This document shows, one piece after another, positions 8,601 through 57,589 of a stretch of 64,000 nucleotides of DNA. The stretch's first letter is position 1. Each line of letters opens with the position of its first letter. The stretch covers positions 53,630,001 to 53,694,000 of the forward strand of contig OZ287752.1 of the NCBI GenBank assembly GCA_965649765.1, read 5' to 3'. The position numbers were made by a program, and so were the translations under genes. The notes beneath the pieces are model-generated. The model was given only the letters and a program-made list of their open reading frames with translations, searched no databases and had not been told where the DNA came from. The DNA is from Bispira polyomma (taxonomy: Eukaryota).

Positions 8601-9548
8601 TACAATATAATTAGTCATTTAAGCATGAATTAAGTGTTAAGTACTTACTAAGCTATCCCCCTGAATCCGTGAATGTAATTAATTTAAATTAGATCAGACG
8701 GCTATCATATAACTTTCTCCTACTTATTGCTGTTTTGTGCTATACCGAGTAGATCTCTATGCCTGGGAAAGATTTATTTTTTGGTTCTACACTTCACAAC
8801 AAATCGTCATGCTTTTATTTACTATCAGTGTGAAACTGAAGTTGTTTTATATTTTTTTTCTATCATAAAATCAGGTATTATACTAATCATTTCATGGCAG
8901 TGAACATCTTGATCTGCTAGGGTGGATGTAATGTAGGCTGTGAACTTTTTAACTAAAACGTTATGTTTTTATATTTTAAAATAAACCACTCTATTTTTGA
9001 TTGATTTTTATTATTGTAGCAAAGGCTAGTGTAGCATACACAAACAATTTTATTATCACAATATAAGACATCACAGAAAAAAAACATTGTATTACAAAAA
9101 ACCTGAATAATATTGAGCAATGTATTATAAAAAAATATGTAGGACAGTGAAGTCCCACTTCTGATCATTGATTATGTTTGCATTATTAGCATTATCCTGG
9201 ATTTCTACAATCATTATGCATATACATCTCTTCAATAGAAAGAATATAATTTAATATATATACTACATGCATTGTTTGTTACATGTACAAATATGGTTAT
9301 TAAAAACCATTTAGCAATTAAACAGTAATTTAAGGCAGTTAAAGCTAAAAAGATTAATTAAATCAAATATATATAAAATATATCAAACATGTTTGTTAAA
9401 GAAAGTCTGTTTGTTGGTACTAGGTCATTTTTTGCTAAGGTTAGAAACCTTAATATGACTAAAACACATAGGCACTTGATACATATTGTCATGCTTTGAT
9501 CGTGGATTCAGAGATTATATATTACAAATATCCCCTGTTGAATGTTCT

Positions 9549-9776
9549 TCACACGTCCTCATCCCTGGGTGGTGGCAATGTCCCCATCACATCTTCTTCC
9601 TCCTGTCTGTAGGGTGGGGGTTCAGCCTGTTCTCCTACAGGTTCTGGAGTACGAGTCCAGTCTATCTGAGTGTACACCGTCATCTGATCCTTACCGTGGA
9701 TGATGTTACCACTGGTCTGTGGACTGTACTTAGGGAAGTCTACCTTGATGTACACACAGCCATCCTCAGATACCTC
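9549..9776 (-). CDS. Gene A last exon (CVYIKV, ITSM TVYTQI, PPPY, C-terminal DEDV)
   Basis: ttatccag|GAG acceptor, phase 0, matching the previous exon; stop TGA at 9549-9551. Confidence 0.8.
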   Translation of the reverse strand, partial: EVSEDGCVYIKVDFPKYSPQTSGNIIHGKDQMTVYTQIDWTRTPEPVGEQAEPPPYRQEEEDVMGTLPPPRDEDV

Positions 9777-12700
9777 CTGGATAAGTTCAAAAGGAACCAC
9801 TATATGCAATGTACAATGACAATCGACATACAGTTCAAAAATATATACCTTTGTTGGACAAACTTATACAACTGATTTGTTAAATAATTACAACTGCTTA
9901 AATTAGAGGTATTTTTATCAAGAAAGTTTTAACATGTAATAAGACGAGTATATATTAGTTCCCCTAAAGTCATATGTATCAAGAATGATGTGGCAGATCT
10001 GGACGAAAATCAACTTTAAAATATTTAATAAAGGGGTCACACTATATTTTAGGAAGTAAACCGATCGATACTCATATGACATGTTTCAAGTGTGATATAA
10101 TTAGTAGAAGTTGTAGAAATTAGGCAAAAACTGAACAAATATGATGAATTGATATACAATTTCTCATCATTTATGCCTAAATTATTTTTACATCTAGTGG
10201 TAGATATATTAAACTAGTTATGCCTTACGTGAACTGTTTGTAAGGTTTACCTCTCTTATATTTGCAAATTTGTACTTATTTAGTATTATTTATTGTTAAC
10301 GCCTCAACATAAATTGCTTTGTAGACACTACAGCACTCACGAATCTAGACTAATAACATAACAGCCAAGGCTTCTATATCATCAAAGCATGTCACCATGT
10401 TTTAATCAAATAATTGATAGATCCTGGAGATGTATAAATATGAAAGTTTGACCAGTGTATCTGAATGTATTGATGCATAGGCTACCTGAAAGCTAAAATA
10501 GATTTTTCTGGATTGCCCTTCTTTTAGATATTCAAAGGATACTACTATGTAAATAAGTGATAATTGAAATATATAAATGTTTAGTCACAATTGTTTTTAA
10601 ATCAACGACTTCAGTAATAAACAAATAAGTTGTACTTTGTGTGTTAAATGATTACTAAAGTATGTTCTTCCTGATGTCTTTACAGTAACACTATACATAC
10701 CCGTATTGGTTTGGTGGCTAGTTTTGGCTTGGCTGCAATGGTAGGCTTAACTTTAACTGGTGACTGAACATCATCATATGGATTGTCACCTGCACAAAGT
10801 GATTGGTAAAAAGTTATAGTAACATCAAGAGTATTTAAGCATAATGATATAATTGCCCTCTATGGTCTGGTCACACCTACACGTGCTAATGTCCCCAAAC
10901 GTAGCAAAGCAATATAGATTGAAAACGTGGTAGTTTTGTGTCAAAGTGACGTCATTTTCATAAATGGGGAGTCAATTGTGACGTTTTGTGGTGTTTATTG
11001 ACGATGTTAACACTTATACACACCGACAGGGGAAATGGTACTGGGCCATAAGCAATGTCCCGGAATGAATGAACCAGGGATCCTCACTTGGGCATTACCT
11101 TCTACTAGCTTTCAAACCAGTTAAAAACGTCACACCATGTAGCTCCAGCACGTGTAGGTGTGACCAGGCTTCTACGTATCATGTGCGCACATGGTGCTGA
11201 ATAATACGACATACCTGTTTCTGGCGTTGGTGTTACTGGAGCCCCCTTCTTTTTTTTCGTCTTTTTGTCAACCTGGGCATAAGCATCACCTGTACAACGT
11301 TGAAAACAGATCAAATGAAACAGGTAAATAATGAAAGAGTTGTAAAAACGAGTATATATCGCCCTACCGTTCGCCACGTTATTACTAACCACAGCATAGA
11401 TTGTAGTCAATAAAAGAATATTAAAAGCAAATCCATTTTGCAATATTAATACATTAAAATAAAAAAAATTAACATTTTCAATACAATCAGTTTCGAATCA
11501 AGTTATATTTATATAGCTATCTATGTATATACAGGTGTATCTATTTTTTAACTGTACACACTTTGTTGTACAAATCTAAAAGTACAGTACCCGCCACTTT
11601 GTGTTTGTTCTTTTTCTTAGACTTATCAACCTCAGCATATGTGACAGCTGCAGTATCTGTAAAAAATAACATTGTAGTAAACCATGTATCATGATCTCAC
11701 CTAATTCATATTTAGAGGTTACTGGACTCATTAAGTTCCAAGATGTATATAACTTTTTATGATACCTGATGTTGCTTTGATGGTATATTCAGATGGTTTC
11801 TTATCAACATCTGCATGAAATGGTGGTTCCACATTGCCGATTTGATCCCGGACATTCCCGATTTGGAGGTCTGGTGCATCTCCGTATAGGTTTGGGAGTG
11901 AAAATGGGATGGTCGGAATGGTCGGCAAGGACATCAAACAAGTTTGATATTTTCTAACATTACTCCGACATACCTCTCTGGACCTCTAAATTGTATTGAT
12001 GGATACGTTTGATCGTATTGTTAATATGTTCTGTCGGATAGGTCTTACTGTACTCCAGGCTCGTACTATCCTACTCGGATTTTTCTTTTTTTTGATCAGA
12101 CAGAATGGGTCAGCACTAAGCTCGAAATTACTTGATCTGACGTATTGTGCCCTGACCGAACTTATTGTCACCCCAGCAGAACTTAGCGGAGTAGATACGT
12201 TTTTTTACCCCGATTGAACTGGCCACAGTAGAACGGAACATATTGAATATAGGATCTGCTGAGCAAGCTAAACGATTGAACGGGGGAGGATACGATCAAA
12301 CTTAAAACTAATAGGATCTGACGTATTCACTCCCGGCCAATAGGATTGAACTTTTGCTAATCGGGGTGTTTGGGTATAAAACCATCCCAGCAGTACTGGA
12401 CTCGTTGTATTGGGAGATTGCTGGCTGGTTTTTTCATCACACAACATTTATATATCATCACGATGCCTAGAGAAAGGAAGATGAAGAGGAAGATGGATAT
12501 GGAGAAGGAGAGATAGTTTGAAGTGGGAGTCTCGTCCGACGAAGTGGAGGTCCAGAGGAAGAAGAAAGACTAGAGGGCAAGTCCTGCCCTTAGTGAGAAG
12601 AGCAACACCAGAGAGGGATTGTTGGAATCATCCCAGGGATTGATGGAATCGTGCCAGGGATTGATGAAATCGTCCCAGGGATTGATGGAATCGTGCCAGG

Positions 12701-15700
12701 GATTGATGAAATCGTCCCAGGCATTGATGGAATCGTGCCAGGGATTGATGGAATCGTCCCAGTATAGAGGTCTCGTAAAGACGGCCGGAAAGATGGTGCA
12801 TGATATACTGACAGATGAGGAGGCCGTAGTTGAGTTTGTTAAAGACAATAAGGTCCTCTACCACAAGAGGCACAAACAGTTTAAGGACAGATTCCTGAAG
12901 GAGAGGTTATGGGAGGATTTGGCCACCAGTGAAGGCCTAAAGATGACCGAAGTGAAGACGTGGTTTGAGTCACAGTGCACCCGTTTGGGGTGTTGATGGC
13001 AAAGAAATCAGGGCAAGGAGCCCCAGAGTGTACTGACAGGGAGATCTGGCTCATGATTCGGTTTTCCTTCCGCAGATCATACATAGTGCGCCACGTGAAG
13101 TCTTCTGTATTCAAGCCATCTACCTTGTCTACCCAGGGAGCTTCCCCACCACATCAGGGAGCGGTACATGATTTGTCAAGGTGCTCTAGTATCGGTGTGG
13201 AAAGTGCAACAGAGACAAGCATGAGGAGCACACAGAGAAATTCTCCAGTCCGTCAGGTCTTCGATATCAACAGTTAGCTAGTTGAGCACCTAGGACACAT
13301 AAGGACAATGATGTCAACCTTTGTGGGTGAAAGCCAGAAGAAAGAGAAGCCCCAGTTGAATCAAACCGCTCAAGACAGATTGCTGGATGCAGTGGACAAA
13401 CTTGTTTAATTGTTATTTATGTGGACAGGACTGTGGTCAGGTCAGATTGGTTTCTTTATTGTATTATTGTATAATTGTATGGACTATTAAGAGTATCTCA
13501 GTTGACTGTAATTCTGTAATTCTGTTATTTTATTTGTTAAATAAATTTGTTAAGTGAAACTTTTTGTCTTTTCCTGTTACAACCTCCAAGCAACCGGTAA
13601 TTGCTACTTCCCTTGCTCCCGTGACCGTAACAATCATCATTGGTTACAGTAATGTACAGCAACTGACTGACCAGCAGCAACAGCCACTTGGATCGCTCAA
13701 CCAGCAACAGCCCAACGTCCTGCCCGTTTCACAGTCGCATCGCACTTCATCTCCACAGCGTAAACCGCAGTAGCCAGTCAGCAATTTGCAGGCGGTCATT
13801 TTCTGACCGCCATGGGTTAACCTCCAGCCCTTTCTTAGGGCCAACCTAATCTTTCACCAACAATATCTAAAGGTTTTTGTTAAAAATCACAAACAAACAG
13901 ATTACACCATCCATTTAAAAGCAATTCACACATACAGACAGAAATAAAAATATCATTGGCCCCAAACTTCAAACTCCAAATATTAGCCTAAAATATAATC
14001 CCAAACAAACAGATAAACACCGTCCCTTCAAAAACAATTCACACATACACACAGAAATAACAATATCATTGGCCCAGACTCACAATTCCAAAATATTAGC
14101 CCAAACAAACAGATTACATTCTCCTCTCCTTAAATGACAGTGGAACTCTCAGTATCAGAAACAAAGAAAGATCACAAAATTACCCAATTAAGAGAAATTT
14201 AGCATTTAAGAAAAAAATAACAGAAAATAAATGATTTAAAAACAATTTAGAAAAAACATAGAACCCCATATTTTGACATTTGTGCAATAGAAAGAGTTTT
14301 TCATGGACAAATAAACAAATTCCTGAGATATTCCTCTTCCAAACAAGTGGTCACACCACTTTTAATGTTTGAACCTAGTTTTGTCCCTAAACAAGTGGTC
14401 ACACAAATGACAAAGTTTGAAAAAGTGATCTTTAACAGGGAATGGGCCATGAACTATCTTTTGCTGGGAAATCTTTATGTTATATATTATGGGGGTCCCC
14501 AGTAGAACTGTACAAGGTCAGTGTAAGGCCTTGGGTTCGAATCTGTTACAATAATGAGTTTCTTTTATCAGTGTGTGTGTTTTGGTGAAAAAAAATTCAA
14601 GTTTGGTGGGGGTCTGCTATGTTTTTATGGTGGTGTTTTAAGGGTTTAGTGACGTAAACACATAAAACGATTGCCGATAACCATGTTATGTGTGCTCGAG
14701 CTTCTCAGAAACTACACAACTTTTTCTCTGTGGCCTTAAACCCGATTTATGGATAATATACTTACATTTTCATGATTAGAAATAACAAAGAATGACATAT
14801 ATTTTAATTATATACTAATTCATGTATTTTAAGTGTTATTTTCATTGATATCTTGAGACATACAATACATAGAGCAGTGTCTCATATTGCAACTAAAATG
14901 GGTAATATTTTCAAAGTACATGCTTCACAAACATGACACAATTCATATACCAAGAAGGGATCAATACTGAAGTATTGTACATGAATAGAATAAGGAAAAC
15001 ATCAGCATTAATTTGAATGAATTAGTTTTTCAAATAAAGCACAAAAACACTGCTAATTTCAGAAAAACATTAAAGTTACACTCTTCTGAACAGAAAGATA
15101 ATTTTTATTCTTTGTTTATATAAAATAGGGAAACCTATTTAAAAACCTATTTAAAAATCTAATTCATTCAAAATAATATACATGTTTTCTAAAGATGTTT
15201 AGGGTATATAATGTCTGCATTTGTGTTGGATCAATACTCGTACTGTGTCACAATAGACAAGGCTCTCTGCGAGAAATATTTACAAATATGACATTCTATT
15301 ATAGATTTCAAATTGTGTGATGTCACAAAACAAGGATCGTTATATGGTTGTTTTTGTGGTTTTATGGCAAAGTGTTAACCTTTTAATTTCTCTGGACATA
15401 TTAGAATAGTTAAAAACCTCACTAAAGTATACTTTTAAAGCTATCATAGTTGTTATACAGAGTAGAAATGTGCATTCGTAAAGCATCATACTTTATCACC
15501 GTCGTGTTTTTGTGTTTACGTTACTAAAGCCTTAAATGAGTTGTGATCGGGTAAGGGGGTAAGGGGTGTAACAAATAGCTCAGTAATTGTTCTTAAAATA
15601 TTTGGGCGGTCCTGAAAAGGACCTTTTTTGGTTACAGCTCAGCTCGAGATGGCTTCTCATCAGACCCAGACTAAGCTCAGGTCAAACTTCCGATTCACTC

Positions 15701-18700
15701 ATTTTGCCAAGGGACTGTCCCTTCATTTATGAAGTAGTCCATCAATGTGTTCCTTTGCTGTTTTGCTATTTTGCCCCTAGATCGATTCCTATCGTTGGCC
15801 AATTGATCCCCCACCAGCTGCTCCTCAGACTCAGGCGGATCATCTTAAGGGCTGGGGTCAGTTTGAAGCCTACCAGAGGATGCTGTTGCATGGTCGTCAG
15901 TAGAAGTTGGAACCTGCTGACCAATATACCGAAGGCATTCTGGACAACCCCCTTCCCCTTGATATCCTGTAATTACAGATCCTTTGGCGGTTAGTCAGTG
16001 ATCTCTTGAAGTAGGGTTTCATCAACCAGGACTTCAGGGCGAAGGCGTCGTCCTCCAGCAGGAAGTAGTTGACAACACGTATGGATCCCTCAAACAGTGG
16101 TGCAGGTTTGGTAAGCCCGATTGATATGTCTTCCAACTGTTCTTTTACTTCCGAGTAGTTGAATATTTGTGCGCCGGAACAGGAATCACTGATGATGGCT
16201 ACATGTTTCCCGTCAATACAGCTCACAGAGTAAGGGATTTTCCATCAGTTTCTGTAGACTTCTTCCGGCTTCAGCCAGTCAGAGGGGTGGTTTGGCAGGC
16301 TAGATTTTCTGTCTTGTATTCCTAGATAATGGCTTTACAGAGCTCTTGGATGAACTTGGTAATGCTTGATTTTCCCACCCTGAACTGATATAACAGGGAA
16401 CTGTAGCTCTCGCTGGTGGCCAGGTGCAAGTTTAAATCCAACATCTAAGGGCTTTCTGTACCAGGTTGTGGCTTTCTTGATATGGCGTTTGATCCTCTCC
16501 TTGATTTCCTGGAATAGGACTGACCTTTTCCGATGGTGGTCTTGGTTTCAATTCCTGTTGAGCTTTAGCCTTGTCTCTTTGATGTTGTAGTACGAGCATG
16601 AGGGAACACATTTCTAATTCAAAAAAGACTAAACAATCCCCTAATCTCCTCAAATATTCTCTCTTGTCGATTGCTGGGATTATCCTCAATTAGTTACTCA
16701 ATATTACATAACTTTTAGGGCTCAAAAAGGGTATATATAGGGTCAGACAGCGTCCCGACTTTATTTTAAATTTTTTTTAATCCTATAGGTCTGGATCATC
16801 AATCTGTCAGATCATATTGCCAATACATTCGATCCTAGGGCAATAGGTCACATCCTATCGCCAATAGGTTCGATCCTACCTGGGTAGAGAAGGTCGGGAA
16901 ACCTTGGAGTTCAAGGTCGTACAACCTTTAAGTTTGATCAGGATCGGTGTCCCGTAAAAATGGGGTACAATGAGGTTGATTGGGAAGGTTGCCCCACTTT
17001 TTTATTTTCCCGCCCCCAAAAAATTTCATTGATATCTTGGCCCCGACCGCCCCAATCTTAAAGTCAGGCCCATTTTGCCAATCAAGCTTGAATGAGGAAC
17101 CACCACTTACCTTGCAGTAAACAAAATTATAATAATTGAAACATTTCCTGTCGGGTATGAATGTCGGTAAAATGTTATGTAACTGTTTAGGGGAATTAGT
17201 ATTACCAAACAATTGATACAGACTTGAGTAAAGATATATCTTCTACTATACCTGCTATTGCTTCATCATTATTTTCTCCAGATAATTTCTGGTCAACATC
17301 TGCATACCCTTGTAGTAAACAAAATAGTACCAAACAATTGAGATATTTCTCTTTTTTTAATTTAGAGTTAATTTTAAATATTATGCCACTGTTTCGTGTA
17401 TCTAGTACAACTAACCTGTTCCAACAGACTGAATATAAAATAGTACTAAAATAATATTTGTTTAACACATATTTTAGTGGGAATTGTATAGCTACCTGAC
17501 ATAGCAAAAGCGTCATCAAACCCAGCATTTTCTTCCCCGGAAGCTTTGTCTCTAAAAATATTACCATTACAGTCTACAATTGTATAAACATAAAATGTGC
17601 ATATAAGATGAAAACATAAGGACTGGTAATAATAAAGAGAGCAAACATATTTACTTACGGTACACCACTATTCAGACGTTCTTGCCCTGTAAATCACATT
17701 ACATAGTTTGATATTACAGTATACAATAAAATTGCAAGATTGTTTCGTGCAGTTTGCTACATGTCTGGCAGTATTTTATATGATATAAATTGTCCACCAA
17801 AATATGACACAACAAATAATAAAACTTTTATTGTAACTGAAAAATCTGTAAATTTACTGAAATAATAGTCTGACATAATAGTTTTTATTACGCTTAAAAC
17901 ACCTAAAATGACTTGCCTTCTTTTCTGAATAATTTATTAATTCCAAGTTTATTTCTGTGAAAAACCACCAATCCAACCACTACAATGATCACCAGGATTG
18001 CAATCAGAGGACCAATTATAGCACCTATGTTAACTCCATCTTAAATAAGACAAGAATTGAACATATCAATATCTACCTACTCACGTATCTGTATATAATA
18101 GACAAGTGTAGTCAAATAATTAAAAAAACGAAAAGGTTTTACCTGGTCTGTATATAGGTGGATCAATTCCTTGAACAAAGGTTGCCATTTGATTGTTTCC
18201 TTCATAGACTTGGACACTTACTGAATATGATGCTTTATCATCAAATTCATCTGGAATTGTAACTCGCTCTTGAGTTGCGTTTACCGTACCATTAACAGGG
18301 TACACATGACTGTTGGCTGTCCCTTCCGCACTATAATTAAACTTTAAGCCCACAGCTACTTCTACCCTTTCCGATCTCTGTTGATTATAATCCCAGGTTA
18401 TTATCATTTCACTCGAAGAAATTGAGTCGATTTGAACGTTTTTAATATCAGGTAGACCTAAAAATTTAAAATAAAAACATTCTACAGTATTTTTTTAAAA
18501 CTAGATTTAATACAAAAAGTGTACATATTGTTTGTTAATTTCACTTCATATCGATCAATGTAAATATCGGTCTAACAATTTAATAATTGGAACACTTCAT
18601 CAATTTAAATACAAGGTGATATTTTTGCTCATGCTGAATTCATTTAAATTATGTTTACCTACATATTGTATTTGGGCAAATCATAGCATTAAAATTAATC

Positions 18701-21700
18701 TCACCAGTATTATAATGACAATCAAAAAATAGCAAACATTTAAAAAGTAAAAATATTTTTGAAATCATATATAGTTAACATAGTTAGAACAGAGCATCAC
18801 ACCTGTCTGTATGTGTTACCTGTTGTTTTGCTGTCACAACTGCAAACATATTCATTTGTTGTATTTATTCCTGTCCTCTGATTCTCCCCATGTATACGTA
18901 TACAATATTCTGTATGTGGCTGCAGTCTTTCAACAAGTACCTGAAGATGTGTACCTTCTATACCTTCTTGAGAACCCCGAAATGTCTGTATATATTGAAA
19001 ACTTGTGTCTGGATTACAATCTGGTTGACTGTGTTCACCAGATTTAATGGTGTAAATGACTGGAGGCATATTGCCACTACGACCTTCCTTCCACTGCACA
19101 GTGAGGGAAGAAGAGGTCATATTCGGAAGAATATAAAGATCAGTTGGTGATTCTGCTGGTCCTATTCAAGTAAACAAAACACTTAAAAATTGAAATTTGG
19201 TTTAATTTGAATGGCTGAATACTAAAACTTTTAAATCCCTTAGACATCCAACTAGCAGTAAAAGAATATTGGAAAGCAAAATTATTTCTTTTTATATGTG
19301 AAGAAAAATATGGAATTGTATAAAGTAGTATATGTTAAGAATTCTTTAACAAAATAAACAAAGAAAAATTAAAAATATGTGAGCAATCATTTAAAATTAG
19401 TAAACATTAAACAATGAACTACCAACAAACAAATTACGATAACATACCCATATTAAATAGAAGATACATACAACACATTCACATACCAAGTTCTCTCAAT
19501 TCTAAAGGAAAAGCCACTGTTCCTACTGTATTATTAACTTCACAATAATAAAAACCGAATGTTGAGTCATTTGTGAAAGCAACAGTATAGTTTTTCATTG
19601 TAGCGCCACTAATCTGTGAGGCTGTATCTGTCCCATTGAAATACCACTGGTAATTTGGCATTGGATTTGCACAAACTGGGCACTGAAGCACAACATTTAA
19701 TTCTTCAAATTCTGCTGCTTGGTATTTTTTGTCAGAATTCCATATTGCAGCATCTGTTGAAAATGTATATATATTGTAATCCTTACATGTATGATTTATT
19801 GAAGAGTGTTAAAACCATATAATACTAGTAATAACAATAAGTAATGGATTGATACCCATTAAACATACAGTGTGTTTCCACTATAACCGAGTTTGAGATT
19901 TTGGTTTCTTCTTCTCCAGCTGTAGTAGCAGTTGCCACACATTGATATACACTGTCATAATACACAACCCCTTCACAAGTATCAAATTGATGCTCGGAAG
20001 CCTTCCAATAAGATTCAAGTTTGTGTGCTTTACTTAATCCATTACAACCATTTTCACAAGCAATATCATTGGTTTCAGTTCCAAAGTAACGTTCATCCAA
20101 TTGTTTGTCATTTTTTTTTATGTACACAGTATTGATATTACTTGCTGATATGACACATGACAAGTTAAAATCACTAGATGTAGTTCCATTATAGACAGGG
20201 TTGTCCATTGAGAGTTTGAATTCTTCAAAGCTCACAGGGGCTAGAAAAAGTAAAAGCATTCAAATATTTACACATGGAGTAAAAAATCAATGAAAATTAT
20301 ATGACTTGTCTTTTAATGTTGTAACTATTACTATAATACAGTATAGTACCATACTTAGGCAAAAATAAAGTAGTACAATCTGAAATACCTTCTACAATTA
20401 CGTCAATGTCTTTTGATGAATTACTTGGACCTATGAAATTTCCTGCAATACAGTGATATATTCCACTTTCTTTGACACTAGTTGGAACAAAATCTTCCCA
20501 ATTTGTTGTGCCATCAATAATAGTATAATTATGAAGGAAACTTCTATTACTGTGCCATGCAATCCAAGAAGCATCAGGAACTCCAATTTCATTGAGTGTA
20601 CTTAGGTCACAGTATAGGGTGTAAGATTTCTCTATAGATATCGTGGAATCAGTAATTGATGCAACTGGCTCACCCTTTGGTGTATCTTTTGAAACAATAA
20701 AAAGTTTAGGCTATAATACTTTGATATATATGTTATAAATTTTATATGTCATCTGTAAAAGCTGTAATGCTGTGATACTCGAACAAAATAGCAAAATATT
20801 TGACCTGCAAACAATATTATTAAGTCATCAATTGCCATATAATGTCTGTATAAATATATTTCAGTACATACACTGTACAATAACATTCACTGAGGAGATA
20901 TCACCATTTCTTTGAACATTGCCACCACATGCTTGAAATTCATTTTCTGCTGTACATGTGAACATTCCAGCATCCTTGTATGTGGTAGATTCAATGTTTA
21001 AAGTCTGGTTCTCCTGCGAACCTGTAGGGTAACTCCAACCATAATCTATAATATTTGGTCTGGCATCAGCATAACAAGTCAAAGACAGTGGATTTCCTTC
21101 AACTACCAAAGTGCTACCAGTGACATTTACATTTCGTGGATGATCTGAAATAGAATTAAGGAGATGAACAATCGATTTCACTTCAGTAATTATATGTAAT
21201 TACGAAAACACAATCTGTAAATATAACATATATACTCACTGTGCTTATATTTAAACATAAATACAGGACTATAAGGCAAATGTCACACCAGCATATACAA
21301 TGTAATGCACAATATTACTCTATAACTAAAGTTAATGATCTCTTCCTGTAAAATTTTACAGATGGGCTAGTGATTTATCCTTAATGGTAATTATTTATAA
21401 TTTTGAATTAGTTTGGTCGTATTCACAAGTTATTTAACACATTGATAAACATATTTTAGGCAAGTTCCTTATGTATATATACAGTGTTACGTATATATCA
21501 TTGAACCAATTTCATATACATATTTTCAAATATTCATAATTGAAATAATTATTTTTTAAAAGTTTTGTCTGGATACAATTGATAACAATAAAATTACTAT
21601 GCAATATTGAATAATGTTTTTAGTGTTTTTTTTAGGAAAAGCTACATTTATTCTGGCTTTCGTGTAATAAAATAGCTTTGGTAATTTTGAAATTTATTCC

Positions 21701-24700
21701 AATCACCAATGTTATGACAATTGGTCAAATACCATATTTACAACATCTGCAGAACACCAAAGAAAAACCTCAGCTAATCTCGATACTTATGTGACATTAG
21801 TATTTAAAACTGGTAAACAGGAACCACTATGATACAATAAACACTCTCCGTTTAATTTACTGTTCAAAGAAAACAAGATTGAAGTGTTAATATCACAAAC
21901 AAATAGCAGACTTCAAAATAGAATACTGAAGTTCACTGAAATAGTGCATATCATGTGTGATTATATAGTATTTCCCATTCCTCATCTAATTCCAGTCTGG
22001 CAAAAATAGCTGATACACAACATGTTATGAAATAGTATGTTGTAATGATAAAAATAAGTTACTTACAGAGAACCTGTACCATAAGGTGTGATGATATTTT
22101 CCCTTCTTCAATACCATTCACTGCAGAACAGGAGTAGTTACCAATATTACTTAACTGGCTTTGACTGGTATTATACCATTGTGATGTAATCCCTGTCAAT
22201 TCACCATTAAAATGCCTGTGGAGATGTAGCACACATGTACATTATAGCTGTAATGATTTATATTGATATTAATTTGCAAGTGTGTTTAAGGGGTTGGGGC
22301 CATCTTACGTCACTATTATTGTTAATGATGGAAAAAAATACATGGCCATTTATCCGCTTCTGCTGACATATTATTACATATTAATGTTGTCTGTATGATA
22401 AGTCAACATTATACTATACATTTTAATGACATTATATACAGTGAGCGATGCCCCCTCAAAGCTGTGCCTGTGGTACAGCTTTTAGTATTACTTATACATT
22501 AATAACATCGCCATCCATATACATAAGTCAAAACTTAAACAATGTGGATAATTTAACCATTTAGAAAGAAAGCATAGAGAGACTGATCTATTTTCAGCAA
22601 GTGAATCTTTACACAATTATTTACATAATGTTGTTACCACACATATGAATATACTGGTGGGTTGCCTTGTCTTGTTACATTGCACAGTAAGTTCAATGGT
22701 TTTTCTTCTTCCACAATATGCTGAAGTCTACATGGTCCAACTTCAACTTCTCCCCCATCTATAATTATTTTATTATTTTCAGGTATTATTATTGCACAAA
22801 AATTGTTGCCCTTGTATATTTGAAGGTATAGAGTCACTAATGTTGTATTTGGTCCTCTTATTAAATGCCTTTGATTTTCACCACCTATTTTTGTCCTTTT
22901 AACCAATTTTAGTTTGGAAAAGTTAATCGTGTATTCACATATTATCCAATTATATTATCTGCCATTACCACTGTGGCAATAATGGAAGATGAACAAGCCA
23001 CTTTTAAATCACAATAACAACTGACACTACTTGATACTATTCATGTTATTATTTCTAGAAAGTTATTTTTGGAGTTTTTAAAATTATTTATAAAATATTA
23101 AACTTGCAAGTAAAATCACTTACATAAAATGTTTAACTGATGACTGTCTATTCTTTGTTGCATTCCCTCCAGCTGTTTCACAATACAAGTTATATTTTTA
23201 CCATTGTCATCTCTCTGTGCTGAATATAGTAATGTACTTGAACCATTCCCAGGGGTGGCTTCATCGGTAATATTACTTCCATCTCCAATAAACCATTCAA
23301 ACTGTGCCGGTGGAAAACCACCCATAGAAGTACATGTAAAAGTTTCACTTGAAGTTATGGTGGTATTAAAATTACCTTCTAAATATGGGTCATCTGATAA
23401 ATCTGAAAAAAAAACATAACAGTTTAGTTATCATATATGTACACATATATATCAATAAAAAGTTGAAGTTTAAAGGCAATGTTACTCTAAAATATGTATC
23501 CACATTATTTACTACATAAACTATGTTTTCCATATTAATCTTGTGTATGATTATGCTATATAAACTATGGTAGCATTCTCATTAAAATCCAGAAAATAAT
23601 AGCTTAACGAAAAATACATTACTTTTATAAAATACTTGAGTATATTAAGTATTACTTTATATTTTCATTATCTGAAAATAAATAAAAAGCTCTTACCATA
23701 CACCTGAAGAAAATAAGTAGCATTTTCACTAGTCTCAAATCTACAGACCCAGTCTCCAGACATGCCAGTAGTTACTCCTGATACTGTGTATGATACACTT
23801 TTAGTTAAGTCAGGACACACTTCATCTACATTTGGTTCTGTGGAATCACATTTACAAGAACCTGGATCTATGTCATAATAACAGGCTTCATCTTGCAAAC
23901 AGTCAAATGTACAGCTTTGACCAGGCAATTGTCCAGGCCAGGCTATGCGCAAAAACTCAGACTCTGACTTTGGGGTATCTAAACTACAGTTTAAAGTTAT
24001 TGTGTCACCAATTTTAACAGATTGAGGTTGGATGGTAAATGTAAGACTGCAGCAGCCTGAAAATAATATAGTTATTTGACATTGTGAATAAATTTTGTGC
24101 CAGGTTAAACTGGTTAAAAATAAATGGTTAATTTTAAGGTGTACCAATCTGTACATTTGGAAAAAAGCCTTATCATTGTACAGCACAAATATTACAATAT
24201 ATATATTTCTATTAATATAATATTAAACAACCTTGACCACATTTTCATGTGTAAAAGTCATAACGTAATAGACAATTTCTGGAAATACAACTGATTCAGT
24301 TTTGAGTACCAGTAATCATAGCTAAATAGTTTGTGTTGAAAATATGACAATTACCGGAATATTCGCCAAAATTGTTGCAGAAAAAATGAAATATCAGGAT
24401 CAGTGTCTCACTCTAGCTTGTGAACTTGATTTTGTTAAAACATCACTGAAAAGATTGGTATGGGGCAGATGAGTTTATTACTATTTCTATATTTGATTTA
24501 CATACTGTAAAAATAGTAAACACATATAAAGTCATCTTTTACTGTATACTAACGATCAACTTTTTTATGAATCAATTTTATTGGGCAATTGTACGTACAT
24601 ACATACATAAGAATATATTTCTAAACTGCAAAACATTTCTTTGATCTCAATACAATGGAATGCCAGTAGCTTTGCTTACAATACTAGGAAATAGGTTTTT

Positions 24701-26925
24701 TGAAGACATCATACAGATCAAGTATACATCAAACTGGTTATATATGCATCATAATATATGTAAAAATAGAACCTCAAACTACATCTTTTACTGTAAAAAT
24801 TTTACCCTTAGACCTCTATCGCTAATCTCACCATCAGTGGACTGTGCACAAGAGGATCCCTTTAGGGGATTGCTAGTTCAGTCTACACCCATTAGCGAAT
24901 GTAATCATATAACTCATTTTATATCTATCCCTTTATTAACCAATCACATCAATTATCACCTGTGACCTCTACCTTTGATGTGCTATCCTTCATATTGCAT
25001 TCTGAACTCCACCAATTACATGCTTTATTTTGTGGTTTGCAGCCATACCATATTCAAATTTGGACTCCCTTATCTTGGGCGATCACAATGTAATACCTCT
25101 GTTCCACTATGCCAAACATGGCCCCCAATTGTTACGATTGTAAGATCGGAGCAATTATCGGGGGGTTCTAATGACTTTTCATTCCAATCGGGGAGGTCAC
25201 AGAGGTTTTCAAACATGTTTTGAGTCAGTGACTGACAATCTCAGATACCAGAACATAGACACTCCTGATCAGATCTCACCTCTTAATCCAGATGCACAGT
25301 AAACGAATTCCACCCTGAACACTCCAACCGAAGCTGTTCCAAGCAGCCAGCACCAGCAGCAACCACCAAGGTGTAGATACCAACCTCTCTTCCTCCTCCT
25401 CCTCCTCCTCCTGAGGTTTCTTCTTGGCTCAGTCTTAGGTGTAGACTCAAACTTGGTAGTTTTTCCAGGGCACTGCCCCCTCTTTGGTGAAATATTGCAT
25501 GAGTAGCTCTCTCTGTTCTTTTGCTGCCCTGCTGGGATTTCTACAGTTGGGTGGGTTGTTTCTTCCTACACGTGCTGCTATTGGTGGAACAGGTGAGTCA
25601 TCTTCTGGATTACCTGGATTAGCCATGTTGATAGCTACGGTCCTCAGTACATTGAGCAGGACCACACATGCTAAAGCTATGGTGGCCACCACTGATCGTT
25701 CCTGAATCCAGAGACCATTGACTTATCTTTAGCAATCGGGGAGGTCAGGAGCAAAAAAAATGTTGTCCTGACAACTAATCGGACCGATCAATCGTAATGC
25801 TAACAACTTATCGGGCGGTTATATGACTTATCTTACAGGTCGTGGTGATGCATATTCCCTCCATTTTTTCAAAAGATCGTTGGAAAATGCCAAAGATTGC
25901 TCACAATCATATTATCATATAATGCCCACCATTCGTGATAGTGTAACAGCACAGAAACGTTGAATTATTTAAAATATAAACAGCCCAGACAATATGCTGC
26001 TGCTCCCTCTCAGCTTTGTTTTAAGCATGTGCTACTTATTGCCTCTGGAATGTTTATATTTGACATTCTAAGGAATCCAAAGAATGCTGTGAGAAAAATT
26101 CATCTAAAGAGAGCAGGTTCCTTAGGAGAGAGCAAGGTTGTGATATTCTCAATAGCTGGTGGTCATTGAACACATCTTTTGGTGATGGCTTAAACGATAA
26201 CTCATGAATATTCTGTTATTCTGAACCAGGAATTCTAAAAAATACTATAACTGAATGGATTGTGATGTCCAGGGGACTCACATAGTAAATAAATGAAAAA
26301 AAAAGGTTTAAACTTGGTCCCTGTATACTTTAGTGGTTAAAGGTCGTAGTGTGGAATATTTTCAAAGCTGCCAGAGCCAGTGAAGCAGACACAGTAGTAT
26401 AACCTACAATTATACAGTGTAGTCAAGGTTAAAATATTTAAGTGGAATATGTCTAAATGTGAGGTTGTCTAGAGTTCCAACTATGTCTTCTAAGACATGG
26501 AGTAGGTGAAAAAAATGTGGTGGTGTTAGTGGTGTGCCGTTGCTACCCGTTTTCTCTTCTACTTTTTGAAGCCATTTAGTGATTTAGTTTTTAAATGCTT
26601 CTAAGAGACGCAAAATGGAGAGCATTTCTGAGAAGTTTTGCTGTTCTAACTCAGAAGTGAGATTACCTGTAGCTTGAGTTTGTACAGTGGTTGGGGATCT
26701 TCTTGATATTCAGCAATATTTGGCATCACAAACAAAAATATAAGTCAAAATATGGTCCAACAATCTTAATTGATATAATTATTATATACTCATTCTCAAT
26801 GCATCTTGGAAATATAGTATAAGGCGTTTGGAAATACAAGTGCAGGGTTTTGGTAAAATAAATATGAACTTACCTATTTGTACAAGTGAACAAATTACAT
26901 ATCCTGCGAAGAATGTGCTCTTCAT
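9549..26925 (-). CDS. Gene A: IgSF receptor, SP + 7 Ig + 2 FN3 + TM + ITIM/ITSM-bearing tail (nephrin/hemicentin-like architecture), ~1197 aa, 20 exons
   Basis: Exons (minus): 26874-26925, 23697-24056, 23124-23402, 22638-22758, 22067-22215, 20872-21144, 20389-20685, 19869-20240, 19487-19753, 18820-19161, 18143-18457, 17917-18039, 17659-17686, 17496-17551, 17252-17308, 11766-11810, 11591-11656, 11215-11289, 10701-10789, 9549-9776. All have AG acceptors and GT donors (one GC), phases chain correctly, total 3594 nt, no internal stops seen. Confidence 0.88.
10701..10789 (-). CDS. Gene A tail exon (NPYDDV, KPTIAAKPK)
   Basis: tgtgcag|GT GAC AAT CCA TAT GAT GAT GTT...CGG|gtatgt. Confidence 0.8.
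10863..11171. mobile_element. PIF/Harbinger (Tourist-like) MITE
   Basis: ~24-bp TIR (core CTGGTCACACCTACACGTGCT) with 3-bp TSD CTA/CTA; same family as 34006-34616. Confidence 0.8.
11215..11289 (-). CDS. Gene A tail exon (DAYAQVDKK)
   Basis: gtacag|GT GAT GCT TAT GCC CAG GTT...ACA G|gtatgt; 75 nt, phase 1-1. Confidence 0.8.
11591..11656 (-). CDS. Gene A tail exon (ITIM VTYAEV)
   Basis: ttttttacag|AT ACT GCA GCT GTC ACA TAT GCT GAG GTT...GCG G|gtactg; 66 nt, phase 1-1. Confidence 0.8.
11766..11810 (-). CDS. Gene A tail exon remnant interrupted by Harbinger (DVDKKPSEYTIKATS)
   Basis: Paralogous to exon 17252-17308. Donor CAG|gtatca intact; original acceptor stranded at 17111-17112. Confidence 0.55.
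12463..13370 (+). pseudogene. Harbinger Myb/SANT-like (MADF) DNA-binding protein, disrupted
   Basis: EEAVVEFVKDNKVLYHKRHKQFKDRFLKERLWEDLA...VKTWFESQCTR..KKSGQGA; in-frame stops and frameshift. Confidence 0.8.
12615..12761 (+). repeat. 21-bp minisatellite x7 (GGGATTGATGGAATCGTGCCA), coding GLMES(C/S)Q
   Basis: Seven adjacent units, in frame within the MADF ORF. Confidence 0.92.
13368..13632 (+). mobile_element. 3' fragment of an LTR nested in the Harbinger
   Basis: Reverse-complement match to 54626-54882; ends ...GTGACCGTAACA; contains AATAAA. Confidence 0.7.
13891..14120. repeat. ~110-bp tandem repeat, ~2.2 copies, inside the Harbinger
   Basis: AAACAAACAGAT..CAATTCACACATAC..ATATCATTGGCCC..ATATTAGCC repeated. 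Confidence 0.8.
15697..16440 (-). pseudogene. Harbinger DDE transposase (HARBI1-like), disrupted
   Basis: HLATSESYSSLLYQFRVGKSSI, CIDGKHVAI, DDAFALKSWLMKPY, NYRISR..NAFGILVSRF, GTVPWQ; frameshifts and an internal deletion. Confidence 0.85.
17252..17308 (-). CDS. Gene A tail exon (GYADVDQK)
   Basis: tactacaag|GG TAT GCA GAT GTT...GCA G|gtatag; 57 nt. Confidence 0.75.
17496..17551 (-). CDS. Gene A tail exon (DKASGEENAGFDDAFAMS)
   Basis: tttttag|A GAC...TCA G|gtagct; phase 2-1. Confidence 0.7.
17659..17686 (-). CDS. Gene A 28-nt micro-exon (QERLNSGV)
   Basis: tttacag|GG CAA...CC|gtaagt; phase 1-2 bridges its neighbours. Confidence 0.7.
17917..18039 (-). CDS. Gene A transmembrane exon (IGAIIGPLIAILVIIVVVGLVVF-HRNK)
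   Basis: Hydrophobic stretch followed by basic residues; GC donor AAG|gcaagt. Confidence 0.85.
18143..18457 (-). CDS. Gene A FN3 domain 2
   Basis: PDIKNVQIDSISSSEMIITW...SYSVSVQVY; canonical splice sites. Confidence 0.85.
18820..19161 (-). CDS. Gene A FN3 domain 1
   Basis: PAESPTDL..TSSSLTVQW..LQPHTEYCIRIHGEN. Confidence 0.9.
19487..19753 (-). CDS. Gene A Ig7
   Basis: LQCPVCANPMPNYQWYFNG...FGFYYCEVNNTVG. Confidence 0.9.
19869..20240 (-). CDS. Gene A Ig6 (atypical)
   Basis: FNLSCV...YDSVYQCVA; canonical splice sites. Confidence 0.88.
20389..20685 (-). CDS. Gene A Ig5
   Basis: YTLYCDL..GVPDASWIAW..ESGIYHCIAGNFIG. Confidence 0.88.
20872..21144 (-). CDS. Gene A Ig4
   Basis: EGNPLSLTCYADARP..YGW..DAGMFTCTAEN. 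Confidence 0.9.
22067..22215 (-). CDS. Gene A Ig3 second half
   Basis: HFNG...GNYSCSAVNGI; ccacag| acceptor, |gtaagt donor. Confidence 0.85.
22638..22758 (-). CDS. Gene A Ig3 first half
   Basis: EEEKPLNLLCNVTRQGNPPVYSYVW (TG|G split codon). Confidence 0.85.
23124..23402 (-). CDS. Gene A Ig2 (CD80-like C2-set)
   Basis: TFTCTSMGGFPPAQFEW...RDDNGKNITCIV. Confidence 0.9.
23697..24056 (-). CDS. Gene A Ig1 (V-like, Cys-rich)
   Basis: GDTITLNC..IAW..MSGDWVC; ttttcag| acceptor, |gtaaga donor. Confidence 0.9.
24836..25090 (+). mobile_element. 5' terminal fragment of an Ngaro-like YR element
   Basis: TGCACA..CCCTTTAGGGGATTGCTAGTTCAGTC as at 37585 and 5739; AGCGAATG.AAT and GCTATCCT.CATATTG shared with 5810-5920. 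Confidence 0.55.
25094..25953 (-). mobile_element. Internally deleted PIF/Harbinger derivative in gene A intron 1
   Basis: Transposase C-terminus at 25447-25692 (IALACVVLLNVLR...QRELLMQYFTKEGAVPW); imperfect TIR CTGTT(C/A)CACTAT. Confidence 0.65.
26874..26925 (-). CDS. Gene A signal-peptide exon (MKSTFFAGYVICSLVQIG)
   Basis: ATG...ATA G|gtaagt, phase 1; joins Ig1 to give MKSTFFAGYVICSLVQIGCCS-LTFT. Confidence 0.75.
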
Positions 26926-27370: not shown

Positions 27371-29306
27371 ATGGATTGTATTAATTTTGGAGCAAAGTAT
27401 ATCTTTGGAGTTTTGTTGTTTTCATACTCTGCAGGTAAATTCATTTTTATATAAGTTTTATTGTCCGTTAATAATATAATTGATATGAAACTGAAATATG
27501 GTTCAGAATAGGATAAGCTTCTAAGCATGTAAGGTAATACATATGAAATCACATTTTATTTTCTTGCTCTATGCATACAGTAGCAGAAGGGCAATATCAA
27601 ATAATATAAAAAAATTGTTCTATAAATTATAGATGGTAGATAATGTACATCTAGACAAAATATTTTTTACTTATTATGTAGAAAAGCTATGTTATTATAT
27701 ACTTGAGTAAATCTGATAAAATACCTTATTCTTAGCACATCTAGTGTGGCCTTTTTGCTTTTCTCTTGAAAGGCATACTTGTCAAGTTTTGCATAATTAA
27801 ACGTTATTTGTACCTCAATTTAGAAATTGTTGTTACACATTTTCTCTATTACACAGTTTGTCAAGAAGTTAGAATCAAAGGAATCCAGAAGCACAATGAA
27901 ACAGCAGTAATATCATGTTATTTTGACAACAAAGTCCCTTATGAAGTTTTTTGGTACTTACAAAGCCAAGAAATGACAAGATATTGTACCATTACTGGAG
28001 GGAGTAAAATATTGATACATTCAAACAACTGTAGTCATTCGGATATTGGGGAAGCAAATTATGAATTTATCATTGACAGTTTGGACATTGGGAGAGACAA
28101 GGATAAAATGTGGCTTTGTCGTTTTGGTTCAACAGATCTTCATCTTAACATCAGTTTTGACGACCGTAAGCAGGATATTTCCACATAAAAATAATGTCTA
28201 GTAATATCACTAGTTATGTATAGGTTACTTATTAAATAGAAATGAATCAGTAATTGATTTAATATTTAGTTGATGTATTTTTGCTGCCTGGTTATAAATG
28301 TCTTAAATAGGGATGTTTTTATGCTATATTATTTTCCCTTGACCAGTGAGTGTATAATTCGCCTTAAGGATTTATTTGCAAAAGTGTCTACCACATATTT
28401 TACACATATACATTTTGTGGTTTTATCTATATATAACCTGAAACAACTATAAATATTAATTATATCGAAACAACCTGAAAATTAAGGAAATATATTTCAG
28501 AGCGTGTGGAAGAAACAAATATTCACCTTGAAATTGATGTTCAAACTGATTATTATAAGGGTGACCCAATTTCCATGGGAGTGAACATAGATTGCGCTTA
28601 TCCACCTCAGCCTGTGATATGGTGCCTCGTTGTTAATGACTATGACAGATCATGTTCAAATGAACCTGATTATTGGAATACATATTTTCAGGCCGAGCCA
28701 GTTATCACTGAAACATTTCGTTCCTGTGAACCGTCTTATGGAACTGACATAGTGAAGTCTCTGGAAAGTAGATTTAATGGAACATTTGCCAATTATGAAA
28801 TGGCAGATACAAGTTTATCATTTGAAATACTGGTAAATGGCATTACTGTCCCAATGGAGTCAAATGGAAAATCGGTTACTGTTAACTTCTGCTGTGGTAA
28901 GTCACAACAACAGACATATTCAAATTTTAAATAAATGTTGAAACCTCTGAGCAACTACAAATTTACAAAATTAGCTTATACAAATGTAGATAAATCGAAA
29001 ATATGTTCAATTTAAACAAATATGGAAGTATAAATTGGTAATATATATTTATAATGTTGCACTCAAATATTATCTTTTACAGTGAGCTTCTCAATCTTCA
29101 TTTATAGCATAATTGTTTAACAACATAATATGGAATGATCTCAAATATATTTTTATTGCAAGTGTTATTATTCATACTCTGTTTCAGATTCCTTATCAGC
29201 TGGGGCTATAGTTGGTATCGTGATTGCTGCATTACTAGTAACAATACTTGTTCCTCTTGGGATATATTGCTTTGTATTCCGCGAGAGCAGTAACCACACA
29301 ACATGA
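27371..29306 (+). CDS. Gene C: small type-I membrane protein, SP + 2 Ig-like domains + TM + 8-aa tail, 295 aa
   Basis: Exons 27371-27434, 27857-28165, 28501-28896, 29188-29306; all GT-AG, phase 1. SP MDCINFGAKYIFGVLLFSYSAVC; D1 ISC..FW..WLC; D2 CAYPPQPVIW; TM AGAIVGIVIAALLVTILVPLGIYCFVF. Confidence 0.88.
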
Positions 29307-29552
29307 ACTGAAGGACAACAGAATATTTGAGACGTAACTGTTATCATTGTCAATATGTTATTGTTTTAAATACATATTCGTTATTACACAAGATTTTTGT
29401 AAGATTGTTGTCACACATAAATGTAATATTATTAATGATTGTTTAGATATGATATGTTAATTTGAATGAATTATCAATGTCGAGCTATTAACAAAAACTT
29501 TAGATTTCAGCTGATATTAGGACTGTTTCTGCTTCTATATAACACACAGTAG

Positions 29553-37895: not shown

Positions 37896-39226
37896 ATGGG
37901 TCGTACCAAGAAAACGCCCACTCGGGTTTCAGTGAAAAAAGTCAACAAAGAAACCATTCATCACAAGGAAGACAATGAAGGAAAGATCCTTTAGTTCAGA
38001 ACCTTGACGGCCAATTATCTGCCAGCCAATTATCTCAAGTAGCGGGCACCTCTAGTAGTAACAATTCTCCTCAACAGGTGTATAGCGATGCATCGCCTAT
38101 TATGGCATCGCGGGGACCCCTGCTTAGACCGGGTTCGGACACAGCCGGCAGCCAAAATTCTGATCAGATGCTAGCCATCCTCATGAGACTGGAATCGTCC
38201 AATGCTGACATAGCTGGTCGCTTACAGAAGGTTGAACAATAAGCAGCAAAGAATACACCCACGTTACATACTCCTCCTCTTCTCGGAACTGGTCTTGACT
38301 TGACCATTGGGCAGATGGCAGCCACAGCTTTCCTCAGCGCAAAATATGTCCCAACACACAACCAAGCTACTACAGGCCAGGTTGCGTCCGGGTTACAACA
38401 ACAGACAGGTTACATTTCTCACCCAGCAGCTAAGGGTAACGCTGCGTTTGGCTCCCCATACAGGCAAGCAGTGTTGAATCAGCTTACATGCAAAATACTA
38501 GACGAGACGTCCCTGTACCAACACACACAGTCTACACGGGACATAAATTCCAACGAGATGGGATTGTACCAAACCTCGATGCTCTAAGATTACTACCACA
38601 TGTTAACACAAGATAAGGCATCCCTTAAACATAAATCAGGGCGCTTAAACAATACAGATGTTACCACTGTGGACCCTGGAGTAAGATAGCCCAATGAAGG
38701 TTGGGTAGAGGGCTTCTCCAAGAAAAATCTGACGTTTGACAAACTCACAATGCTACAGTGAAATGGAAATGAAGGATATAATAAGGCAGGTATTTTCAGC
38801 ACTCAGAGATGCTTTATCGCTCCATGGCACATTGTCAGGACAGCCTGGGCCCTCAGCATGCACGAGGTTGAGGAGGGTTGGCTGTCCTGGCAGAATGATA
38901 CTCAGTGGTCCCTGAACAGAATCAGTGCCTCTCATCTAGCTGTGATCAACAGTGCAAATGTAGGTAACAATAACAGCAACAATGAATCTAAGCTTATTTG
39001 TAAACTGTATAACAATGGCAAGTGTAGCCACAAGTCAGACCACAATAACTACAAGCATATTTGCTGTCATTGCAGCCGAATCCTAGGAAAGGAATCGAAC
39101 CATCCCAAGTTCAAATGCTACAAGGCCAATATTAAACAGCTTGACAGCCAGGTGAATCAAGGAAAGCAAATCCAGATCTTATTTCAACAACCAGGAGAAC
39201 GAACAATATGTGCAGAGTATAATTAA
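37896..39226 (+). pseudogene. YR-retrotransposon ORF1 (gag-like, Cys/His zinc fingers), disrupted
   Basis: HEVEEGWLSW..CKLYNNGKCSHKSDH..HICCHC..HPKFKC. Confidence 0.75.
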
Positions 39227-40149
39227 TGAATGAGAACACTAGTGAGACTAAAACTGTGATTATTCTTGACAATTTTAATGAGGTTGATAGGATATTGCCT
39301 CATGGTAATCAGAATGTTGACTGTGTTAATGACAATGAAAGTATAATACGGAATAAGGTGAACATATTGTACTCCAGTAATGTTGTAGAGATTTCAGATG
39401 AGGGCATAGTGGCTGATCACAACTGTGTATCAGAGCATTATGACTTATACTTGTATGATAATTTGCAGTCCAGCTTCAGTATTAACAATCAATTTCAGAA
39501 TTGTATCAGCAAGTCAACTGATAACTTCAACGAGTCCCAGAACTATAGTGGTACTTTTAAAAAGGCAATGTTACAGAAAGATAGTAAAAACCAGGTAGAA
39601 CTAACAATTACTGTCACCAATTGGCAACACTTCTGTCAAAAATGGTCCATCTGGGCCCCATAATTTTCTTAAATTGCAACTATAAGAAAATTAAAGGTTT
39701 TCAGAAAATGAACTATCATAGTCGGGACAATGAAATTAAGTACATACCTGTGTTTAATGTGCCTCGAGAAAGACTGCAAATTATAGACATATATGTCACA
39801 GCCGTCTACTGTGATCAGACAGTAAAGTTTAAAAAATTGATACGTGAGGTAACTCCATGTGATGCTGAGGACATAAAATAGGCAGTTTTTTTACAATTTT
39901 AACAGAGATGTAGAATGCTATCAACAGTATTGCTGTGACTATTCTGAACATATAACCATTGAAATTATATGTGATGAAAAATGGAATGTTAATAGCGGTG
40001 ACAGCACAATTAGCAGTGCAGATAAAGAAAAAGTAAGCACTGCATGTGGACACGATACTCTAAAGAGTGTGTCTTGTGATAAAATATACACTTGTCCGAT
40101 CCGTGATTGCTTCTTCCAAACTAATGGGGTCAATGCTAACCACACTTCT

Positions 40150-41860: not shown

Positions 41861-41871
41861 CATAATTACAG

Positions 41872-55953: not shown

Positions 55954-55991
<38 letters not shown>

Positions 55992-57584: not shown

Positions 57585-57589
57585 AGTAT

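Follow-up and report, generated by a model that had tools for sequence, protein, structure and literature searches.

The 64,000-nucleotide window analyzed here (Bispira polyomma, assembly GCA_965649765.1, contig OZ287752.1, positions 53,630,001 to 53,694,000, forward strand) carries on its minus strand a gene, called A below, whose predicted product is a single-pass Ig/FN3 surface receptor, a type I membrane protein with a 213-residue cytoplasmic tail in which six of the eight tyrosines lie in Yxx[V/I] motifs. The reading that we favor, with a probability of roughly 55%, is that this tail would be phosphorylated by Src-family kinases, recruit the phosphatase SHP2 and damp the signals of neighboring receptors. 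Gene A lies within a receptor cluster at C5:53.64-53.88 Mb, and the likeness of that cluster to vertebrate paired receptors is a more interesting lead than the tail motifs. Positions without a prefix are window coordinates, and C5 coordinates refer to the same contig of the assembly.

Tyrosine motifs of the gene A tail

An earlier note on this DNA had listed six motif strings between 9549 and 11656 and had read from them SHP-type phosphatase recruitment combined with cytoskeletal coupling. All six strings are present in that interval on the minus strand:

11645-11628, minus: VTYAEV, a consensus ITIM (tyrosine-based inhibitory motif of immunoreceptors)
10784-10767, minus: NPYDDV, a YDxV motif
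9758-9741, minus: CVYIKV, with Cys at -2
9680-9663, minus: TVYTQI, an ITSM (tyrosine-based switch motif of immunoreceptors)
9623-9609, minus: EPPPY (PPPY at 9620-9609), a PPxY motif
9563-9552, minus: DEDV, followed by TGA, a PDZ-type end

Three further strings are absent from that list, namely DAYAQV, which falls within the same interval, YSPQ, and SGYADV, which also fits the ITIM consensus. The tail contains two consensus ITIMs (SGYADV and VTYAEV, 24 residues apart from Tyr to Tyr) and one ITSM when the consensus given in PMC8631942 is applied, and it has no YxN and no YxxL. CVYIKV and TVYTQI do form a pair, but their Tyr-to-Tyr spacing is 26 and not the 22 given earlier, which is the distance from the +3 Val of the first motif to the Tyr of the second. 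The VTYAEV hexamer is indeed also found in LILRB1, at Y562 (PMC7226588), and this is a six-residue coincidence without homology.

How many such motifs would be expected by chance? In 100,000 shuffles of the 213-residue tail the mean number of Yxx[VIL] motifs was 1.15, as against the six present (P = 8e-5), and in the 925-residue ectodomain only 9 of 46 tyrosines are in this context (Fisher P = 0.004 against the tail). The values for the named motifs are P = 0.017 for two ITIMs, 0.060 for the ITSM, 0.058 for YDxV, 0.058 for PPxY and 0.083 for any PDZ-class end (0.029 for class III); ITIM, ITSM, YDxV and PPxY occur jointly in 7e-5 of the shuffles, a set that was chosen post hoc. The ectodomain, where function of this kind is impossible, has two ITIM, one ITSM, one YDxV and two PPxY matches. 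Since the single extra motifs are near chance and recur in the ectodomain, the signal is the repetition of Yxx[V/I] together with the distal pair, and not the variety of motifs. When only the two best splice-ranked exons (below) and the last exon are counted, Yxx[VIL] is found at four of six tyrosines (P = 0.005), and the tandem pattern of the last exon has P = 0.01; the patterns for these restricted tests were defined post hoc, with the sequence already seen. A degenerate ITSM pattern searched at the DNA level gave 16 matches against 34 in a reversed control and was discarded as noise; an upstream partner motif was present at none of the 15 remaining matches.

Yxx[V/I] also matches the clathrin-adaptor consensus, so that the +3 enrichment would be accounted for if the tyrosines were mainly unphosphorylated YxxPhi sorting signals, with PPxY serving ubiquitin turnover, on an endocytic or adhesion protein that does little signaling through phosphotyrosine. 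We regard this as very unlikely, as AP-2 accepts Val poorly at the Phi position and SH2 docking is better suited by the six copies, the Thr at position -2 of the distal motif and the 26-residue pair.

The cytoskeletal half of the earlier proposal corresponds to a nephrin-like multi-adaptor scaffold, which would reach actin through Nck (YDxV) and would also bind Nedd4 (PPxY), a PDZ protein (DEDV) and SHP. All of its motifs are present and jointly rare in shuffles in spite of their post hoc choice, the ectodomain has a nephrin-type C2-set domain, and PPxY and DEDV close the last exon. Such a scaffold is nonetheless improbable: each extra motif has a P of 0.06-0.08 and is matched in the ectodomain as well, there is a single YDxV where nephrin has three (PMC11247170), YDDV is merely one of the six Yxx[V/I] motifs, no paralogue carries YDxV, PPxY or DEDV, and no Nck SH2 was recognized by eye in the 30 of 38 genomic SH2 matches that were translated, which is a lower bound. 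Coupling through these adaptors is therefore unsupported, and any part played by PPxY, YDxV and DEDV would be accessory at most.

Predicted gene model and splice support

The complete model of gene A has 1,182 residues, with a signal peptide, seven Ig and two FN3 domains, a transmembrane (TM) segment and the tail. Eighteen exons from 24056 to 9549 on the minus strand join into a frame 1,165 residues long whose only stop is the terminal one, with AG/GT junctions throughout except for one GC donor, and a 17-codon signal exon completes a set of 19 exons, all of which are open and phase-compatible. The tail is predicted to span seven of them:

17252-17686, minus: juxtamembrane part of the tail, in three small exons joined in frame (17686-17659, 17551-17496 and 17308-17252, the last of them phase 1-1)
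11591-11656, minus: tail exon with VTYAEV (11645-11628), phase 1-1, lysine-rich run
11215-11289, minus: tail exon with DAYAQV (11287-11270), phase 1-1, lysine-rich run, splice rank 1 of 50
10701-10789, minus: tail exon with NPYDDV (10784-10767), splice rank 2 of 50
9549-9776, minus: last exon, with CVYIKV, YSPQ, the ITSM TVYTQI, PPPY, DEDV and the stop

The splice ranks come from a model that was trained on 20 ectodomain and TM exons and then ranked 50 candidate exons without motif input. The three proximal exons have modest scores (acceptor ranks 68, 18 and 50 of 449), and it is the 17496/17308 junction that creates SGYADV. The VTYAEV exon has a strong acceptor (rank 4 of 449) and a weak donor (rank 196 of 489). 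After the TM exon the only stop available to the frame is in the last exon, which has a G+C content of 52% versus about 33% in its surroundings, and AATAAA is found downstream of this stop at 9054 and 9012. Contigs from three of three DNA runs have zero differences from the window over 9000-10896 and 11143-11847; because these runs come from a single study that is possibly the source of the assembly, the match is not independent, and the contigs, which were DNA-type, have no splice joints.

It could be argued that the distal exons are outside the gene A transcript, the gene being silent or ending earlier, and that the motif list was assembled from unrelated pieces. The splicing is predicted from sequence alone, the TM exon has a GC donor, the proximal exons score modestly, the donor at 11591 is weak, and many of the neighbors are pseudogenes. 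We nevertheless give this explanation little chance, as 19 open exons are compatible in phase, no other stop is on offer after the TM exon, two of the distal exons are the top two candidates by splice score, the stop is followed by poly(A) signals, and the comparison of A with its paralogue B gives a dN of 0.095, lower than the dS of 0.175.

Two features of the tail exons and their introns may be recorded here. The neighboring phase 1-1 exons 11591-11656 and 11215-11289 have in common YA[EQ]VDK and a lysine run, which suggests exon duplication, and membrane lipids could be bound by their polybasic stretches. High-copy repeats are present in the 5.6-kb intron that interrupts the tail (11850-17200), among them MADF (12574-12993) and DDE_Tnp_4 (15900-16244) sequences left by a Harbinger-like transposon; pieces resembling these remnants also flank other genes of the cluster.

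The signal, ectodomain and TM exons are as follows:

26874-26925, minus: exon of 17 codons for the signal peptide, phase 1, gtaagt donor (a sequence prediction)
23697-24056, minus: V-type Ig domain at the N terminus, with additional conserved cysteines
23124-23402, minus: C2-set Ig exon (PF08205, E = 2.7e-8)
22067-22758, minus: third Ig domain, in two exons (22758-22638 and 22215-22067)
19487-21144, minus: Ig domains 4-7, in open frame (exons 21144-20872, 20685-20389, 20240-19869 and 19753-19487)
18143-19161, minus: two FN3 exons (19161-18820 and 18457-18143; PF00041, E = 2.3e-8 and 8.5e-5)
17917-18039, minus: TM exon, uncharged TM, GC-type donor (AAG/gcaagt)

The V domain has a weak Pfam V-set match (E = 0.023), and its structural model (pLDDT 88) is matched by Foldseek to antibody V and nectin-like domains with TM-scores of about 0.5-0.6. 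An alignment of 22 sequences shows six extra conserved cysteines (CxxDC..C..CxCD..C) besides the canonical pair. The third-Ig exon sizes, 121 and 149, are common to gene A and paralogue F. Pfam Ig matches were obtained for three of the four Ig 4-7 exons and not for 20240-19869, which is Ig-like with a CxxxC loop insertion and is found in A, B and F only.

Probable docking of SHP2

In the favored reading, ligand binding would lead a Src-family kinase to phosphorylate the six Yxx[V/I] motifs, after which CVYIKV would bind the N-SH2 and TVYTQI the C-SH2 domain of SHP2, head-to-tail like the ITIM and ITSM of PD-1, which bind these same two domains (PMC12905495). Dual engagement by the last-exon pair would open the phosphatase, the SGYADV/VTYAEV pair and DAYAQV would provide additional sites for SHP2, SHIP or Csk on small and possibly skippable exons, and the output would be inhibitory, damping signals of neighboring receptors. 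The spacing of 26 in the last-exon pair is close to the 25 of PD-1 Y223/Y248 (PMC7078208), other such pairs being Siglec-9 Y433/Y456 and KIR Y302/Y332 (PMC7226588), and tandem docking of SHP2 depends on head-to-tail order and linker length (PMC10231330). A medium-size nonpolar residue at the position after the phosphotyrosine favors binding to the SHP N-SH2 domain (PMC8631942), and this residue is Ala or Ile in four of the six motifs. The B. polyomma genome encodes SHP2 itself (tandem SH2 at C3:64.047 Mb of the assembly): among its 38 SH2 matches (4 of which were checked against PDB) is a C-SH2 exon that matches PTPN11 with E = 3e-35, with N-SH2-like exons 0.6-1.5 kb upstream of it, and there are also Csk, SHIP and Syk-like SH2 exons. 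It is the Yxx[V/I] enrichment, the PD-1-like pair and this SHP2 orthologue that make SHP recruitment, of the two functions first proposed for the tail, the one that stands as its best reading.

Several points weigh against that reading. Splicing of the tail, its phosphorylation and its binding of SHP2 are all predicted; the VTYAEV exon has its weak donor and lies beyond an intron filled with transposon sequence; CVYIKV is a nonconsensus ITIM because of its Cys at -2; and the last exon by itself has Yxx[VIL] at only two of four tyrosines (P = 0.11). No homologue of the last exon was found in the 1.04-Gb genome of the animal by protein (two candidates) or DNA, among 26 candidates (longer proteins) in a protein collection, or in JGI contigs, where none of 62 pattern matches was confirmed. 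Docking of SHP2 is frequently activating (PMC12905495), and a tail with dual xVYxxV motifs in Botryllus belongs to the partner of an activating receptor (PMC12582321). Because of these last two observations the output of the gene A tail could have either sign.

The arrangement of seven Ig and two FN3 domains is one that we take to be adhesion-molecule-like, and it would fit a tail that docks SHP2 as a positive signal, through a Gab1-like bisphosphoryl activation motif and Ras-ERK, in adhesion, growth or guidance and not as an immune brake. Two adjacent phosphotyrosine motifs can activate SHP2 and so promote ERK signaling (PMC12905495), and Botryllus FcoR1, with its dual [A/D]VYxxV, partners an activating receptor (PMC12582321). 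This alternative seems unlikely to us in that broken copies and swapped domains in a tandem cluster are typical of fast-evolving recognition receptors and not of conserved developmental genes, and in that no named full-length homologue came up in searches with Ig6 or the V alignment.

Conservation of the tail motifs in paralogues, which the earlier note had suggested as a check, is inapplicable because the paralogue tails are different (local alignment with the gene A tail gives P values of 0.07-0.91, which do not demonstrate homology), and no orthologue was found. A V-profile search returned 22 matches, 15 of them exon-length open reading frames without tails and 7 long but weak or unrelated; related V exons are present in other assemblies, several per contig, where tails are unreadable. 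The first match in an Atlas search scored 0.89, under the 0.9 lead threshold.

The paralogue cluster and its short tails

V exons of this family are found in the B. polyomma genome in a sole cluster at C5:53.65-53.88 Mb, with at least 12 matches, and no paralogue in it has a tail of the gene A type. When 324 kb were scanned in six frames for YxxLxxYxN, 16 matches were obtained, 9 elsewhere and 7 directly after the TM exons of paralogues, in their last exons (C5:53.69-53.86 Mb). Besides A, seven family members with a TM were identified, B, D, E, G, F, J and L, and all seven have short tails with this motif that are otherwise divergent. Motifs were tabulated for A, B, F and G, with D, whose junction is ambiguous, left out. 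The B, F and G tails have 61-68 residues, each with one YxN, which in the immunoglobulin tail tyrosine motif serves as the site for Grb2 (PMC4263166), and with no ITIM, no ITSM and no ITAM (tyrosine-based activation motif of immunoreceptors), and no Arg or Lys is found inside their TM segments. The E, J and L tails resemble that of G, and the B and F tails terminate in YExL.

The exons of F, G and E are open, and B, D, J and L are broken. V domains like that of A (71-78% identity) are found only in broken B, broken J and orphan exons, and those of the intact short-tailed genes F, G and E are 32-35% identical to it (in one haplotype). The C2 identity of paralogue F is 38%. In the short-stalk genes G, E, J and L the stalks are 83-93% identical, yet identity among the V domains is 32-36%; the V domain of J is 71% identical to that of A, and that of E 76% to that of F (V domains assigned by adjacency). 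Orphan or partial V exons lie upstream of other genes (53879657, 53841355, 53817716 and 53822400, within C5:53817480-53879763) and, given this swapping of V domains between stalks, could either be left over from duplications or serve as alternative first exons.

Gene B is a paralogue that lies head-to-head with A:

51450-58602, plus: gene B ectodomain, broken
59067-60443, plus: remainder of gene B, with a frameshifted second FN3, the TM and a short tail (YxxLxxYxN at 60348-60374)

A and B are 82-88% identical in DNA, exons and introns alike, from the V exon through the first FN3 exon. Damage to B comprises lost splice sites, a frameshift in the C2 exon and a TAA at 58451-58453. The first FN3 domains of A and B are 84% identical and the second only 40%, a distance comparable to that of either from F (43% and 38%). 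Likeness in the first and divergence in the second imply that an ectodomain block was copied or converted, in one direction or the other, onto a different second FN3, TM and tail.

Small tandem duplications are present in gene B at 51302-51449 (V exon) and 58738-58900 (after the first FN3 exon). Between A and B lie a long interspersed nuclear element (LINE)-like element at 44850-50700, with endonuclease and reverse transcriptase Pfam matches, and, by eye, a remnant like a tyrosine-recombinase retroelement at 38000-42700. A further gene, C (27745-29307, plus strand), has two exons that are Ig-like by eye without a Pfam Ig match, and its TM exon stops a few residues past the membrane; similar tailless exons are present on the plus strand at C5:53751564 and 53798540.

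Is this a paired-receptor cluster?

The layout of paired receptors is present, with clustered genes and a 213-residue ITIM/ITSM tail on A versus short tails on the others. Two defining traits are absent: this haplotype yielded no intact short-tailed gene with an A-like ectodomain, and B, F and G combine their short tails with neither a charged TM nor an ITAM, either of which would mark an activating member. The cluster resembles vertebrate paired receptors without qualifying as such on these two counts. A protostome paired cluster of independent origin is a tentative reading, with the odds against it, in which an SHP2 brake on A would be balanced by short-tailed YxxLxxYxN receptors, with shuffling of V domains and tails and short-lived activating copies of A that arose and vanished time and again; YxxLxxYxN would then combine a Grb2-type YxN with a hemITAM-like YxxL in place of ITAM and charged TM. 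The COX1 of this genome reads AAA as Lys, ATA as Met, AGR as Ser and TGA as Trp, in keeping with the standard invertebrate mitochondrial code; such a code rules out vertebrates, tunicates, echinoderms and hemichordates and indicates a protostome, although amphioxus would also be compatible with it. A literature search that left most subscription journals and supplements outside its reach turned up no paired Ig-FN3 cluster described from a protostome.

Because invertebrate Ig receptors with ITIM/ITSM tails are already known, the motif list is by itself ordinary. The value of the locus is in its internal contrast, one long SHP2-type tail versus seven short YxxLxxYxN tails, and in the clean switch point of the A/B pair between two FN3 exons. 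If the tails do signal oppositely, a vertebrate-style balance of signals, seen also in Botryllus and Hydractinia allorecognition, would also exist in a protostome, where the activating module is of another kind.

Comparison with known systems

Nephrin, Kirrel and sticks-and-stones share with gene A an array of V and C2-set Ig domains, FN3, YDxV and a PDZ-like end. The nephrin family has eight Ig domains and one FN3, whereas gene A has seven and two, a Cys-rich V domain and tandem expansion, and no nephrin-family protein was matched in V-domain profile, Ig6 or word searches; gene A is not a nephrin. Siglec-11/16 are a head-to-head pair, with which the head-to-head A and B and their shared ectodomain block may be compared. 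LILR, KIR, SIRP and PILR (PMC3533184) likewise form small clusters with similar ectodomains and long ITIM versus short tails; here, in contrast, every copy whose V domain is A-like is broken, and the short-tailed paralogues carry YxxLxxYxN in place of an ITAM or a TM Arg/Lys. The ITIM-ITSM tails of PD-1 and PECAM-1 (PMC8631942, PMC12905495) similarly place TxYxx[V/I] about 25 residues after a proximal Yxx[V/I]. The gene A tail differs from them in its proximal Cys at -2 and in its four extra upstream sites, and the likeness is convergence of short motifs without homology.

Among invertebrates, the systems nearest in function are oyster CgNCAM1, Botryllus FcoR and Hydractinia Alr; a review of IgSF proteins (PMC11999971) and PMC9333988 contribute little to the comparison. 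Hydractinia Alr (PMC9546547) likewise consists of tandem genes and pseudogenes with V-type Ig and FN3-like ectodomains and with tails that are more divergent than the ectodomains, few of them with ITIMs and many of activating type; these cnidarian proteins have Ig domains without canonical cysteines and true ITAMs, whereas the present cluster has extra cysteines and no ITAM. Oyster CgNCAM1 and CgIgIT/IgIT2 (PMC11841013) are, like gene A, protostome single-pass Ig and FN3 proteins with ITIMs. Recruitment of the phosphatase SHIP2 is reported for the oyster receptors, one of which, an Ig-FN3 protein bearing two ITIMs, binds SHIP2 and dampens inflammation. CgNCAM1 has three Ig domains, one FN3 and two ITIMs, as against the seven, two, six Yxx[V/I] and ITSM of gene A; the likeness is one of architecture and motifs, and the text available of that paper describes no paired cluster. 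Botryllus FcoR (PMC12582321) is likewise a cluster of diverse IgSF genes, which have splice-swappable motif exons and tails that bear ITIM or hemITAM motifs; it belongs to a tunicate, acts in allorecognition, is encoded with cognate FF genes and lacks YxNM, and FN3 and YxN tails are unreported in the portion of that paper at hand. Both FcoR and gene A end in a pair of the Yxx[V/I] type (xVYxxV in FcoR), with a spacing of 29-33 in the former and 26 in the latter.

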